Part shown: positions 53,457 to 59,580 of the stretch, piece after piece
Layout of the letters: each line of letters opens with the position of its first letter
How positions within the stretch are numbered: the first letter of the stretch is position 1
Assembly: GCF_988243305.1 (NCBI RefSeq)
Contig: NZ_OZ547136.1
Reading direction: 5' to 3' (one strand)
DNA: 64,000 nucleotides
Made by a program: the position numbers and the translations under genes
The notes under the pieces: generated by a model
The model's database searches: none
What the model saw: the letters and a program-made list of their open reading frames with translations, nothing else
What the model was told of the DNA's origin: nothing

Positions 53457-54121
53457 TTTGGTTCTCTCTCCTGGCGATTAAGTTGATTCTCAAAATGGTT
53501 CTGCAACGTCGATAACACTGTCGCCATGATCCAGTAGATGAGCGAAGCCGCCAGATACATGGTGAACACCTCCAGCGTACGCGAGGTAATCAACTGCGCC
53601 TGACGGAACAGCTCCGGCACCTGGATTGTCGCGGCCAGCGACGTATCTTTTACCAGGCTGATAAAGCTGTTCGACAGCGGCGGCAACGCCACCCGCGCCG
53701 CCTGTGGCAAAATCGCGCGACGCATGGTCTGCCATGGCGTCATACCAATACTGGCAGCAGCTTCCCACTGACCTTTATCAATAGAAGAAATGGCGGCGCG
53801 CAGCGTTTCGGCAGCATAGGCGGCAGTGTTTAGCGACAGACCAATCATTGCTGACGGAATGGGATCTAGTTCGATGCCAAACTGCGGCAGGCCGTAATAG
53901 ATCATAAACAGTTGTGCGATGAGTGGCGTACCACGAAAAATAGAGATATAAAAACGCGCCAGCCAGCGCACGGGCCAGATTGGTGAAAGGCGCATCAGCG
54001 CGAGAATAAACCCTAGCAGTAAGCCAAAAAACATGCCGCCGATACTGAGTTGCAGCGTATACCCAGCCCCTTTCAGCAGGAACGGCAAGGAATCAATAAC
54101 CAGTTGTATACTTTCTTGCAT
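53453..54121 (-). CDS. tcyL: Cystine ABC transporter permease TcyL (YecS)
   Basis: 222-aa membrane protein. Confidence 0.9.
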   Translation of the reverse strand: MQESIQLVIDSLPFLLKGAGYTLQLSIGGMFFGLLLGFILALMRLSPIWPVRWLARFYISIFRGTPLIAQLFMIYYGLPQFGIELDPIPSAMIGLSLNTAAYAAETLRAAISSIDKGQWEAAASIGMTPWQTMRRAILPQAARVALPPLSNSFISLVKDTSLAATIQVPELFRQAQLITSRTLEVFTMYLAASLIYWIMATVLSTLQNHFENQLNRQEREPK

Positions 54122-54135
54122 GAGCGTTTCCGGAG

Positions 54136-55288
<1,153 letters not shown>

Positions 55289-55487
55289 GACAGGATTTCC
55301 TTGTGTATGTGGGGTGCTCTGTGGCGCTCTGAGATGTGATTTGATTGAGGGTTTTACAGCGCGGACATTTAACTTCCAGATAACTGAAGCTGGCTCGTGC
55401 CAGTAGCTTGTTACAATGTCGGCACCGTATGTTTCGATACATGGCCGCATAACCTCCTGCTTTGTTGTTGATATCTTTATCACTCAA

Positions 55488-55508
55488 TCGATCGACAAAA
55501 ACGATCGA
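55488..55508 (-). promoter_or_regulatory. Paired GATC sites upstream of com-mom
   Basis: GATC at 55490-55493 and 55503-55506, about 50-65 bp upstream of the com start. Confidence 0.35.
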
Positions 55509-55698
55509 TTTGATTTATTTAATTGATACAACAAATAACACGAAATGTCATTAGCGAAAATTTATGAGTTTGATCACTAATTTTAAACGGTGCTGTAACG
55601 CATAAGTGCTGAATGATTGTACATTTGAATACCGCAAAGCAAACAAATCAACTAATTTATAGAAGTCAATTGGTTAATTGCCAGCGTAAGAGGCTGCT

Positions 55699-55992
55699 AT
55701 GGACAATCATGTAACGACGAGAAATCGAAAAATGATTGAAAATGCGGAAATCTATAATGATTATTTTTCCGATTATTCAGATGCCTGCAAATACAGTTCG
55801 AGTGCGGGAGAGTTCATATGCTTCAACTTTTTTATTAAATCTTATGTTTTTCCTCCACAGCAAGAAGATGGAGGTGTGCCACCTCCTGAAATCACTTTGC
55901 ACCGTATAGCCTCCGTCTCAATGATGGAGCAACAGGCTAATGAGCTGTATAGCATTCTGGGAACGATTCTACAAAAGCGTGAATCGGACTAA
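55699..55992 (+). CDS. Hypothetical protein (97 aa), opposite strand, AT-rich
   Basis: ORF with AAGAGG SD; low-GC context. Confidence 0.35.
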   Translation: MDNHVTTRNRKMIENAEIYNDYFSDYSDACKYSSSAGEFICFNFFIKSYVFPPQQEDGGVPPPEITLHRIASVSMMEQQANELYSILGTILQKRESD

Positions 55993-56159
55993 TGATACCG
56001 GTTCATTTGCCTGCCCGGATGGGGAAGCAGGATTGACTGCTCCATAAGCAGCTATATTTCTGAATACGAAATACTATCCAGCGATTACATATGGCTGGAT
56101 AGCGGCAAAGATGTTTTCATTAGTGTCAAACCGGCAGAGGACACCACCGGTTTGTATTG

Positions 56160-56414
56160 TTACATCATGGTACTGTCAGTTCCGGGCTGAGCCGGGTCTG
56201 GTTGCTCTGGCTGCGCGTCGGTTTTCGGCTCATTATCAGCATCACTGGCCGCAACTGCTGGCCCAATAAGTTTTGCCAGCACTTCATCAACGTAAGTGTC
56301 GATTTGTGCCTCAAAATCCTTGCGGACCTGCGCTTTCAGCAACTTATTTACTTCACCGGAATACAGTGCCTGTTTTACCAGGTCTTCAGTGACGGTGCCT
56401 TTAATTTCTGGCAT
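56160..56414 (-). CDS. Hypothetical small protein (84 aa)
   Basis: AGGAGG SD with 6-nt spacer; acidic proline-rich C-terminus. Confidence 0.5.
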   Translation of the reverse strand: MPEIKGTVTEDLVKQALYSGEVNKLLKAQVRKDFEAQIDTYVDEVLAKLIGPAVAASDADNEPKTDAQPEQPDPAQPGTDSTMM

Positions 56415-56449
56415 GTATATCCTCCTTATGCGGGAATAAAGCCCTGCAA

Positions 56450-56632
56450 TCAGGGCTGGGTCGGGTCTTTTGGGAGCGGAGTTACCTGCGCTGTTTTACT
56501 GAGTTTTTCAGCTGCTGCGTCCTCAATTTTGCGGCGAACATAATTTCTGATGGCCTTATAACCACCACTCACCAGATATAACGCACATACTGCCGTGCAG
56601 AAATACAATAAAATAAGCTGTAAAAATGTCAT
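56450..56632 (-). CDS. Hypothetical small membrane protein (60 aa)
   Basis: ATG 56632 with GGGAGGG SD; one predicted TM helix; hairpin at 56441-56456 overlapping stop. Confidence 0.45.
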   Translation of the reverse strand: MTFLQLILLYFCTAVCALYLVSGGYKAIRNYVRRKIEDAAAEKLSKTAQVTPLPKDPTQP

Positions 56633-56776
56633 TATCCCTCCCAATTATTGACATGGTGTTGACACCGGTAATATCTGTTAGGTAAAAAGGTGCACTGCAT
56701 TTTTTGCTTTGGATATAACGATCTTTTTGCCGCCGGTTTCTTGTTTTCCCTTACCGGCGGCATTTTTTTATCCTGC

Positions 56777-58831
56777 TTACGCGTTATTCACTTCCACCAC
56801 GATACTGTCAATCAGTACCGGGTAAGTCGCATTTTTAGTGATATCGGTCACGCGCAACTTGTCTGCCGTAAACGTGCCGACCGGAGACTGCGACAGCATG
56901 AATGGTGTCCCGTCCTTACCATCAATGACCGGCGTCACCTCAATACTGTTGTTACCGGCAAAACGGAAGCCCAGCGTATGCCATTCGTTATTAAATGCGC
57001 CGAATGACCCCAGCTTCGTGTTCTGCGCCGTGTTTCCTTTGTGATACATCACGTTAAGGTCTGTGGCATCGCTCTGTACGTAGAACGATGCCAGCAGGTT
57101 ATGACCGGCATTTCCTTCCAGAGTAACCCCTTGCGGCAGGGCAGAAACCGGCCAGTACAGCGCCAGTGCGTACTGATTAGCCGTAAGCGCGCCATCGAGT
57201 TTAAAACGACAACTGACAAGACCACCTTTACCCAGCAGGTCCGCACCATTACCAGCATCATGCTCAAGGTACCAGGGGGCTCTTCCTGTTTCCTTGGTCA
57301 GTTTCATTGCCTTACCCCCGCTGGCTCCGGCATCATCCACGATTTGAGCCTTGCCACCTCCGGCAGCCCAACCCTGTGGTGTCAACCGTCCTTCAGACTC
57401 AGATGCCCGGTAAGCAAATAGCGTACTCATCGTCGTGGTGTCTGCGGGTGGCGTGGACGGTTTTGATGGTGTATCAGGTGACGGCTTCTCATCCGGTGGT
57501 GTCACGGTCTGCCCGCGCATCAGTTCAGCCGTGCGCCCTGCATGGAGCATAATAGCTGAGGCCAGACGGTCTGAAATGACGCCCCTGCGTGCCCATGAGC
57601 TGAAATGGCTGTCACGCTGTGTCGAAACAAAACTGCCCTGGGTTCGGGATGCTGCACCGTAATACCCGACAGCCACAATATCCGGGTCTTCCGCCGGAGC
57701 ATTCGTTGGCGTGCTCTGTCCATTCTCATCCGTCAGGAACGGTACAAAGAAAATTTTCTGTGCTTCCTTGCCTTTGTAGCCACCGTATACTGCCTCATAT
57801 TTATCGGTGCCAGCGTTTTTCCAGTAATACGTGGTATCACCGCAAATCCACGGCACCGTGGTGGCATTTCCACTCACGCACTGCGCAGCAAGCGGAGCCA
57901 GGTCAGTTCTGAACTGCTGAACCATGGCCGTGAATAAACTATTATGCTGCTGGCTTCCTGAGGCAAGGTCTGCCTCTCCCTGCATCCAGACCACAGCCAG
58001 AAGTTTGTTTTTCGGGTTTTTCGCCAGCGCGACTTTGGTGCGGCTTACCAGGTCCTGATACAGAGGTTTACCGGCCCCCCAGCGTGAAGAATCAGCGGAA
58101 GCACCGCTGGCCTCACTGAATGAGCCGTCGGCTCCAGTGGTGAATGCTGACCCGCCACGACAACAGGGCACCAGAAGTATCCCGGCATTCTGTGGGATAT
58201 AGGGAAGCAGTTTTTTGGCAATATGCAACCCCTGACCGACAGTCCCGTACTGGCCTTTTGCCAGATCAGCTTTCGGGTGGTTTATCCCGCTCATATCCTG
58301 AACATCATGCAGGCAGTGGTCTGCCGGAATGATGTCGTTGTATGTACACGACGTACCGTTGGGCGTTACCGCACTGCGGCGTGCCAGTTGCTTAATGCGT
58401 GGGTCCGGGCGGTCAAACGAATCCGGTAACGGCAGCCCCTCGCCGTAGGCCATGCCATTTGACTGACCCGCGAGAATGACAACAAAGTAATATTCCGGCT
58501 CTGAACTGCTGCCATTCGTGCTACCGGAAGGCCCGGCGTTATCCGGTGCATTCCAGTCGGAGGGCGTGAGCGTTCCGGCCACGTCAGATGTGATTGGAAT
58601 GATGCCAGTCACGCCTGAACTGGTGATTTCTGCACTGGGATTACCGGATACCGGCATTACCCATAATGGCTCTTTCGTGCTGAAGCGGATCACGCAGTCT
58701 GCGAAGGTGATCCCCCCTTTATTACCCGAAGGGCGGAAAGGGCTTTCAATAAATGCCACCGTGCCACCGGCAACCTTGACTGAAAACTCTCCGGGCATGG
58801 CGGAGAGCATTTTCCACTTGGAGTCTGACAT
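56777..58831 (-). CDS. Prophage cargo protein with SGNH/SASA-type esterase-like domain (684 aa)
   Basis: Motif YYFVVILAGQSNGMAYGEG (GQSN block); Ser/Thr/Pro-rich linker; C-terminal beta-rich domain; start codon uncertain. Confidence 0.55.
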   Translation of the reverse strand: MSDSKWKMLSAMPGEFSVKVAGGTVAFIESPFRPSGNKGGITFADCVIRFSTKEPLWVMPVSGNPSAEITSSGVTGIIPITSDVAGTLTPSDWNAPDNAGPSGSTNGSSSEPEYYFVVILAGQSNGMAYGEGLPLPDSFDRPDPRIKQLARRSAVTPNGTSCTYNDIIPADHCLHDVQDMSGINHPKADLAKGQYGTVGQGLHIAKKLLPYIPQNAGILLVPCCRGGSAFTTGADGSFSEASGASADSSRWGAGKPLYQDLVSRTKVALAKNPKNKLLAVVWMQGEADLASGSQQHNSLFTAMVQQFRTDLAPLAAQCVSGNATTVPWICGDTTYYWKNAGTDKYEAVYGGYKGKEAQKIFFVPFLTDENGQSTPTNAPAEDPDIVAVGYYGAASRTQGSFVSTQRDSHFSSWARRGVISDRLASAIMLHAGRTAELMRGQTVTPPDEKPSPDTPSKPSTPPADTTTMSTLFAYRASESEGRLTPQGWAAGGGKAQIVDDAGASGGKAMKLTKETGRAPWYLEHDAGNGADLLGKGGLVSCRFKLDGALTANQYALALYWPVSALPQGVTLEGNAGHNLLASFYVQSDATDLNVMYHKGNTAQNTKLGSFGAFNNEWHTLGFRFAGNNSIEVTPVIDGKDGTPFMLSQSPVGTFTADKLRVTDITKNATYPVLIDSIVVEVNNA

Positions 58832-58916
58832 CGTCTTTTCTGCCTGTTTCTGAATTAAACAGAGTCAGAATAGCGACCGCTGAAAAATATGTGTTTTGCG
58901 GAAATTCAAAAAAGCG

Positions 58917-59489
58917 TCACGGTACTTTTGGTGACGGAGCTGGTGAGGCAGGAAAATAACGATAAAGGGTGGAAAGGCCAATATCAAATATCAGTGCGAT
59001 TTGTTTACGGGACTCGCCATTAGCCAGCAAACGGGCGATTTGCTCCCGCTCTTTCTCTGTCAGTTTCTGAGGTCTGCCGCCATGACGCCCCTGAGCACGG
59101 GCAGCAGCAAGACCCGCGCGTGTACGTTCAATAATGAGTTCCCGCTCCATTTCCGCCAGCGCGCCCATTATATGGAAAAAGAAACGTCCCATGGGAGTGG
59201 ATGTATCAATATTGTCCGTAATGCTGCGGAAGTTAACGCCGCGTTGCCGGAGTTCTTCTGTTAAAAGGACAAGGTGCTGCATACTGCGTCCAAGGCGATC
59301 CAGTTTCCAGACCAGCAGGGTATCCCCTGGCCGGAGTCGCTTTAATGCGCGTTTAAGTCCGGGACGCTCCCTTGTCTTACCGCTTATTCTATCTTCGAAA
59401 AACAGCTCACATCCTGCACATTCCAGCGCATTTCTTTGTAGCGCCGTATTCTGGTCATTTGTTGACACCCTGATATACCCAATCAGCAT
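58917..59489 (-). CDS. Serine DNA invertase, Gin/Pin/Hin family
   Basis: MLIGYIRVSTNDQ...WKLDRLGRS with catalytic Ser and C-terminal HTH; adjacent to invertible segment. Confidence 0.9.
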   Translation of the reverse strand: MLIGYIRVSTNDQNTALQRNALECAGCELFFEDRISGKTRERPGLKRALKRLRPGDTLLVWKLDRLGRSMQHLVLLTEELRQRGVNFRSITDNIDTSTPMGRFFFHIMGALAEMERELIIERTRAGLAAARAQGRHGGRPQKLTEKEREQIARLLANGESRKQIALIFDIGLSTLYRYFPASPAPSPKVP

Positions 59490-59554: not shown

Positions 59555-59580
59555 TTCCTGAAAACCTCGGTTTACGGGAA
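59555..59580. other. Invertase crossover site (gix/hix-like), left
   Basis: TTCCTGAAAACC-TC-GGTTTACGGGAA: 12-2-12 imperfect palindrome matching Gin/Hin site half-sites. Confidence 0.55.

Follow-up and report, generated by a model that had tools for sequence, protein, structure and literature searches.

Two hairpins lie between the convergent genes ORF97 and DUF826, near the right end of an E. coli prophage of the Sp18-like Mu type. Their folding, and the conservation of hairpin 2 among sister prophages, indicate that they are probably transcript 3'-end elements between two convergent units, with hairpin 2 derived from the phage backbone and hairpin 1 from the ORF97 cargo. Hairpin 2 also marks a mosaic (acquisition) boundary, because conserved sequence ends with it and a slot follows in which small orphan genes are exchanged. 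The arrangement is an ordinary moron-style boundary; the hairpin pair matters little alone, and its importance is as the edge of a cargo slot in a family of Mu-like prophages that is widespread in E. coli.

The window, that is, the whole 64,000-nt stretch of DNA that was analyzed, contains the right part of the Mu-like prophage from ~54.4 kb to the window end, and the forward direction of the phage corresponds to the minus strand of the window. Gene context was taken from identical copies in RefSeq E. coli genomes, in which the genes are annotated as gin, DUF6645, DUF1378, DUF826, hypothetical, Com, and Mom, and from Pfam matches. The order at the prophage right end is gin, the gene for a NanS-p-like esterase, DUF1378, DUF826, the hairpins, ORF97, the GATC/mom control region, com, and mom (Table 1). 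This Sp18-like right end was present in 461 of 5426 complete genomes. Stx phages carry the same esterase, DUF1378, and DUF826 gene families in their stx-to-holin region (PMC10462455). In phage Mu, gin ends within the GATC cluster and com lies ~95 nt further on (AF083977); because gin directly abuts the GATC region there, Mu lacks the whole esterase-DUF1378-DUF826/slot block. The GATC cluster and the com-mom arrangement are homologous to those of the Mu gin-com junction, as is the ATCAATTAA motif at the slot's left edge, which can be aligned with the final codons of Mu gin, but Mu has no equivalent of the hairpins.

Table 1. Coordinates of features at the right end of the prophage, listed in the forward direction of the phage
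Feature	Position	Strand	Remarks
Serine recombinase gene gin	58917-59489	-	RefSeq annotation; preceded by tail fiber/invertible segment
NanS-p-like sialate O-acetylesterase gene	56777-58831	-	SASA and DUF6645 domains (Pfam)
DUF1378 gene	56450-56632	-	RefSeq annotation and Pfam
DUF826 gene	56160-56414	-	Last gene of the conserved esterase-DUF1378-DUF826 block; stop codon TAA at 56162-56160
Hairpin 2, CAAACCGG/CCGGTTTG	56127-56154	-	8 perfect pairs on either strand
Variable cargo slot, allele A	55538-56120		GC 0.32-0.46, compared with ~0.5 in flanks; right edge approximate
Hairpin 1, CTATCCAGC-n11-GCTGGATAG	56074-56102		9 perfect pairs plus 2 inner pairs, leaving a 5-nt loop
Weak 5-bp hairpin CTGCT-n5-AGCAG, then CTATATTTCT	56037-56051	+	In ORF97 3' UTR; dG -4.2, tail score 2.61
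ORF97, cargo gene of slot allele A	55699-55992	+	97 aa; stop codon TAA at 55990-55992
Two GATC palindromes, AATCGATCG-n7-CGATCGATT	55486-55510		Mom control region; conserved left flank of slot
com	55242-55442	-	66-aa zinc-ribbon protein, intact in the window
mom	54551-55258	-	Coordinates corrected for a 1-nt indel relative to locus L001

The mom control region (55443-55537) has only two GATC palindromes, located ~45 nt from the com ATG, whereas Mu has three GATC sites and a distance of ~95 nt. Because the number and spacing of the GATC sites are unlike those of Mu, this control region must have another arrangement of the late promoter and of the C and OxyR sites. Within com, a G-tract at ~55283-55286 (minus strand) varies in length: the window has GGGG and encodes an intact Com protein, and an otherwise identical copy in JE86-ST05 has GGG and is annotated as frameshifted. 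The JE86-ST05 genome (NZ_AP022815.1) contains three copies of the spacer/right-end sequence at separate chromosomal sites, as could result from replicative transposition of the Mu-like prophage in a single genome. The probable right end of the prophage in the window lies at ~54419-54520, where ...GCGCTATATACA meets ACAGG at ~54419 and repeated TTTGATACC-type motifs resemble transposase R-end binding sites.

On the other side of the esterase block, the 3' end of gin (58901-58935, minus strand) contains the inverted repeat GTCAC-n10-GTGAC, the 3' arm of which overlaps the gin stop codon and is followed by GC and T6. This terminator-like sequence suggests that the esterase block is a transcription unit apart from gin. 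Just past gin, at 59562-59573, is an exact gix-like core, AAACCTCGGTTT, for which no second copy with one mismatch or fewer was found; it is presumably the right inverted repeat of the invertible tail-fiber segment. Hairpin 2 was considered as a Gin/gix site and rejected, since its AAACC and GGTTT halves are 18 nt apart, not 2, and the gix-like core just described is the only exact one in the window.

The motifs and spacings given for the two inverted repeats in the preliminary description matched the sequence, and the pair does lie between the stop codons of convergent genes, as had been stated. The positions of hairpin 2 were exact; those of hairpin 1 (56071-56100) were 3 nt too low. From reading of the sequence and the inverted-repeat count, the arms of hairpin 1 are CTATCCAGC at 56074-56082 and GCTGGATAG at 56094-56102, separated by an 11-nt spacer. 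Hairpin 2 has a core composed of AAACCGG (56128-56134), a 12-nt spacer, and CCGGTTT (56147-56153), with one more pair outward. In minus-strand RNA it begins 5 nt after the DUF826 stop codon and forms 11 pairs, including two G.U pairs, around a 6-nt loop.

The frequency of such repeats was compared with that in dinucleotide shuffles. The 64-kb window contained 22 perfect 9-mer inverted repeats with loops of 3-12 nt, compared with 3.0 in the shuffles, and 40 perfect 8-mer repeats, compared with 11.2; for a 168-nt spacer the shuffles predict ~0.008 and ~0.03 repeats, respectively. Because hairpins are common in real intergenic DNA, the pair found here is non-random and yet not unusual. Both hairpins fold on both strands between the convergent stop codons. 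Hairpin 1 folded about equally well on the two strands, at -15.3 to -17.6 kcal/mol in context; other estimates were -15.3 kcal/mol as a single hairpin (z -4.0 to -4.6) and -12.5 to -15.5 kcal/mol for the 9 (+2) pairs. For hairpin 2, the values were -15.6 to -16.7 kcal/mol on the minus strand (z -3.55 for -16.7) and -9.8 to -11.7 kcal/mol, with 8 pairs, on the plus strand, where folding was weak (z -0.37 for -11.7). The hairpin 2 helix of the window allele thus has a clear strand preference for minus-strand RNA. For the 191-nt spacer as a whole, z was -4.77 (minus strand) and -2.77 (plus strand).

Hairpin 2 was compared among sister prophages. There were eight distinct variants, and in each one a helix was present in the same register relative to the DUF826 stop codon; all of them came from E. 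coli or Shigella, and the diversity is small (n = 8). A second scan of viral contigs, with a DUF826 alignment, recovered 33 loci that were already known and added no further hairpin 2 variants, and DNA and protein searches of a phage collection for Mu-type DUF826 yielded only two Stx phage records, which contain an inserted Mu-like element. In the alignment of the variants, 87.4% of the cells were paired, compared with 16-48% when the partners were slid by 1-3 columns. Two pairs had changes on both sides, one from A-U to C-G and the other occurring as G-C, G.U, and A-U, and three pairs shifted to wobble among the variants. In the B allele, hairpin 2 has a shorter stem of different sequence, CCGGCAGG/CCTGCCGG, capped by a tetraloop, and is located between convergent stop codons that are 38 nt apart.

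The sequences following the helix differ among the alleles on the minus strand. The C alleles have (U)AUUUUCAU right after the helix, which gives tail scores of 3.15-3.73, and the helix plus U tract is predicted to be a textbook, canonical intrinsic terminator in the phage direction. Nine bases of this U tract are recognizable yet eroded in the A alleles, reading AUUCUAAUG in CI5 and ACACUAAUG in the window; in minus-strand RNA of the window, hairpin 2 lacks a U tract and its tail scores 1.63. The plus-strand tail overlaps the DUF826 stop codon and for this reason reads UAUUGUUACAU in every allele; its score of 3.43 is close to the 95th percentile for random 15-mers (3.40). Over all alleles the strand bias of the helix is weak: by count from the alignment, seven internal wobble cells favor the minus strand and five terminal C.A cells favor the plus strand. 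In our view, the backbone unit has in hairpin 2 a conserved 3'-end element, which is probably able to work in both directions.

The spacer sequence next to hairpin 2 is not shared by most of these prophages. When a 241-nt query across the spacer was used, 232 E. coli genomes were matched, only 16 of them over the full length. For the other ~217 genomes the match began at query positions 167-172, which correspond to window positions 56126-56131, the outer base of hairpin 2, and the two Stx-phage records with the inserted Mu-like element had the same breakpoint. Past hairpin 2, the alleles lose their homology over the next few to ~10 nt. On the com side, similarity stops at window position 55537, as determined by search plus alignment by eye. 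Because homology is lost at 55537 and just past hairpin 2, the sequence from 55538 to ~56120 constitutes a variable cargo slot. The proposal that the hairpins mark an acquisition boundary is therefore upheld for hairpin 2, at which the breakpoints fall and beyond which small genes are swapped between copies, whereas hairpin 1 lies inside a cargo allele. The comparison with related prophages gave the same picture, with different small genes between hairpin 2 and 55537.

A census of the slot was made with the window and 59 other loci; seven of these 60 sequences were left out, both anchors not being found. The slot ranges from 359 to 831 nt and has at least five alleles; lengths of 359, ~515, 616-618, ~750, and ~830 nt occurred in the 53 remaining sequences, none of which had an empty slot. 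Prophages of the O103/O157 (Sp18) type contain a plus-strand ORF of 154 aa; Sp18 of O157:H7 Sakai and EDL933 has this allele, B. In FORC_069 and HCP4S3_I4, the slot has a truncated form of the 154-aa ORF plus a convergent pair of 68-aa and 66-aa ORFs, and deletion derivatives are also found among the sister-prophage slots. In the window, the GC content is 0.32-0.37 over 55400-55900, compared with ~0.5 in the flanks. A slot at this location, next to the mom operon in Sp18-type Mu prophages, has apparently not been described previously. In two loci the members of the convergent pair (L003, 2588-2957; L004, ~2573-2960), encoding 68 aa (+) and 66 aa (-), overlap at their 3' ends by ~35 nt, a layout that recalls small toxin-antitoxin or antisense-regulated pairs; neither ORF had a Pfam or PADLOC match, and the 66-aa ORF also had no PHROGs match.

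In the window the cargo gene is ORF97. Its ATG at 55699 is preceded by a good Shine-Dalgarno sequence (AAGAGG); the RefSeq start is at 55732, giving a product of 86 aa. The reading frame is open in CI5 (100 aa), and the dN/dS ratio was 0.36, compared with 0.08 for DUF826 and 0.94 for an out-of-frame control. Word-indexed and exhaustive HMMER searches of 1.84 billion representative proteins identified only near-identical E. coli and Shigella proteins as relatives. ORF97 matched no Pfam, PHROGs, or PADLOC family; the same was true of the other slot ORFs, except that the B-allele ORF matched phrog_26524 (unknown function). An AlphaFold2 prediction from a seven-sequence alignment had a pLDDT of 49 and gave an unusable model. 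For ORF97, the only sigma-70 promoter matches were of 9/12 and overlapped the start codon, and none was convincing. The ORF97 3' UTR is far less conserved than the ORF in the comparison of the window with CI5. In one viral sequence (L013/L051, IMGVR_UViG_2617270947_000010), ORF97 of allele A is broken by an IS1 insertion and the hairpins are intact.

Hairpin 1 is confined to cargo allele A, and the spacer sequence was found only in the 16 allele-A genomes; lysogens with allele A include JE86-ST05, DLI.5a, and JKHS016. Among five close variants, all 18 stem positions were invariant and 3 of the 11 loop positions varied, a difference that is marginal (Fisher p ~0.045). In the CI5 copy, which is 86% identical, the inner stem is lost and a 6-bp outer helix is left, in which one outer pair is compensated (C-G to T-A). 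Exact matches to the half-site occurred only at its own two arms in 64 kb, and the palindrome was not repeated in 64 kb in the manner of REP/BIME-type elements; an operator or repeat was therefore rejected. The evidence for a function of hairpin 1 is weak.

Neither hairpin is a canonical strong intrinsic terminator in the window allele. A simple terminator scan called neither of them, and its sole terminator-like match on the plus strand was the weak hairpin in the ORF97 3' UTR (Table 1). Moderately U-rich tails follow hairpin 1 on the minus strand (UAUUUCGU; UAUUUCGUAUUC; score 3.55, compared with 3.40 for the 95th percentile of random 15-mers) and hairpin 2 on the plus strand (UAUUGUU; UAUUGUUA); the plus-strand tail of hairpin 1 scored 1.52. 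A nearby terminator used for reference (56730-56771), with a T7 tail, had a score of 5.34, far above those of both hairpin tails. In single-molecule and SEnd-seq experiments, 3' ends between convergent E. coli genes were reportedly fixed by stem-loops, including ones that lack classical terminator features (bioRxiv 10.1101/2022.10.23.513370). It is plausible that the hairpins end both transcription units, which is what the preliminary description had suggested from the sequence.

The two hairpins probably operate as follows. Hairpin 2 would serve as a terminator, pause site, or 3' stabilizer for the esterase-DUF1378-DUF826 transcript, and would probably be bidirectional, serving also whatever cargo converges on it. 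Hairpin 1 would have arrived with the ORF97 cargo allele. In allele A, in which the U tract after hairpin 2 is eroded, hairpin 1 would provide the only U-rich tail in the phage (minus) direction. Because the tails face outward, we infer that the transcript of each strand may pass the near hairpin and end after the far one, producing a 3' overlap of ~80 nt; in this likeliest layout, minus-strand transcripts would end after hairpin 1 and plus-strand ORF97 transcripts after hairpin 2. Untimely expression of mom is harmful, and its control involves C, Dam/OxyR, and Com. With mom under such tight control, extra genes located between gin and the mom control region would be expected to need an end signal, and hairpin 2 would keep transcription of the esterase block from running antisense through the cargo gene into com-mom.

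Other roles for hairpin 2 as RNA have to be weighed against its proposed role as an element that ends transcription. It might be a 3' stem-loop that shields the DUF826 mRNA from 3'-5' exonucleases, or an RNase processing site, with Rho ending transcription further on, at the untranslated ORF97 antisense. This possibility, which we consider unlikely overall but plausible for the window allele, would fit a helix that is conserved when the U tract is not, that begins so close to the DUF826 stop codon, and that has no U tract on the minus strand in the window. It does not explain the canonical U tract right after the C-allele helix or the remnants of that tract in the A alleles, which together suggest that hairpin 2 was ancestrally an intrinsic terminator. 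The spacer (55993-56160) might also encode a small regulatory RNA, such as a 3'-UTR-derived sRNA of ORF97 or DUF826. The z scores of the 191-nt spacer are in keeping with this idea, and the CI5 spacer is structured as well (z = -3.5 and -2.7) despite its divergent sequence. However, a Rfam 15 scan of 54000-58000 with E values up to 10 found no match in the spacer, no promoter-like site is present inside it, the window and CI5 share little conserved sequence apart from hairpin 2 and a 19-nt patch, and there is no U-rich 3' end of the Hfq type, unlike that of the candidate RNA at 56650-56771 described below. We regard an sRNA as very improbable.

Two further explanations deny the hairpins a role in RNA. 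Hairpin 1, and possibly both, could be functionless palindromes that arose by chance or hitchhiked in fast-evolving noncoding cargo DNA. Hairpin 1 is present in allele A only, its inner stem is destroyed in CI5, the ORF97 3' UTR around it shows much weaker conservation than the ORF, no further copy of the half-site GCTGGATAG occurs in the prophage, and the conservation statistics are marginal, all of which fit this explanation. Chance is nevertheless a doubtful account, given that a perfect 9-bp stem is so rarely expected in 168 nt of shuffled sequence and that the substitutions among close variants of hairpin 1 fell in the loop and none in the stem; for hairpin 2 it leaves unexplained the pairing that is kept across alleles by double-sided changes. 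Alternatively, the inverted repeats might act as DNA, either as binding sites for dimeric regulators or as recombination sites for cargo exchange, since hairpin 2 is at the homology breakpoint in all alleles and the arms are perfect palindromes. The sequence of hairpin 2 drifts while its pairing is kept, however, and the G.U intermediates would be mismatches in duplex DNA. In addition, no matching repeat was found at the left edge of the slot, the half-site of hairpin 1 is unique, and the flanking conserved genes suffice for exchange by homologous recombination, so that a role as DNA sites is extremely improbable.

The location of ORF97 was compared with that of phage morons as defined by Hendrix and Juhala, which are autonomous extra genes inserted into the backbone that typically bring a promoter and a factor-independent terminator of their own. 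ORF97 resembles them in being an extra, low-GC, orphan gene that lies between conserved backbone elements, is followed by stem-loops, is absent from Mu, and is replaced by other genes in sister prophages; absence from related phages, conserved backbone flanks, and deviant nucleotide composition are thus all found. It differs in being transcribed opposite to the backbone and in having no convincing promoter, and the best-conserved hairpin belongs to the backbone, not to the insert. A stem-loop pair of this kind at the edge of a slot could help in annotating moron boundaries.

The hairpins were also compared with two classes of terminators. Like the bidirectional, collision-assisted E. coli terminators of the SEnd-seq class (bioRxiv 10.1101/2022.10.23.513370), they are stem-loops in a short convergent spacer that fold on both strands and have no strong U tracts, and the B allele, with its single hairpin between closely spaced stop codons, is especially similar. 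They differ in that there are two separate hairpins with outward U-rich tails in place of one shared hairpin. Rho-independent terminators share with them the GC-containing stems of 8-11 bp with energies of -12 to -16 kcal/mol and, in the C alleles, the UAUUUUCAU that follows hairpin 2. In the window, however, the tails have 5 U in 8 (hairpin 1 minus, hairpin 2 plus) or are absent, hairpin 1 has an 11-nt loop, which shrinks to 5 nt if a mismatch is accepted, and a standard scan calls neither hairpin. The alleles of hairpin 2 constitute a natural terminator series, with the U tract present, eroded, or absent, for testing hairpin-only ends of convergent transcription.

A broader and quite speculative proposal, which we put forward with considerable doubt, is that the DUF826-com interval is a dedicated hotspot for cargo exchange. 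The hairpin 2 RNA element would insulate the lethal C/Dam/OxyR-controlled com-mom operon from the lysogenically expressed esterase block, and the slot orphans (ORF97, the 154-aa ORF, and the convergent 66/68-aa pair) would owe their expression to the divergent side of the mom control region and might have host-interaction or anti-defense roles.

Two other sequences near the hairpins were noted. On the minus strand a mini-ORF of 11 codons (56118-56083, MKTSLPLSSHM*) starts 6 nt past hairpin 2 and ends in the hairpin 1 loop. CI5 retains its first five codons (MKTSLLFF*), and the B and C alleles have an ATG at a similar place after hairpin 2. It has no Shine-Dalgarno sequence and has another end in CI5; it was rejected as a gene and is probably due to chance.

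A candidate antisense small RNA gene is located on the plus strand between the esterase and DUF1378 genes (56650-56771). A weak Rfam match to Esr41 at 56689-56771 (22 bits, compared with a gathering threshold of 102) was rejected as to identity, because Esr41 maps to OI-43 (z1181-z1182) and the match is essentially to the terminator. The candidate has tandem TTGACA boxes (56650 and 56661), followed by ~75 nt that end in a strong plus-strand intrinsic terminator, CCGCCGG-n15-CCGGCGG then T7, which is the source of the 5.34 tail score. Sister prophages retain the TTGACA box and the terminator; the body of the candidate RNA differs in the O103/O157 type.
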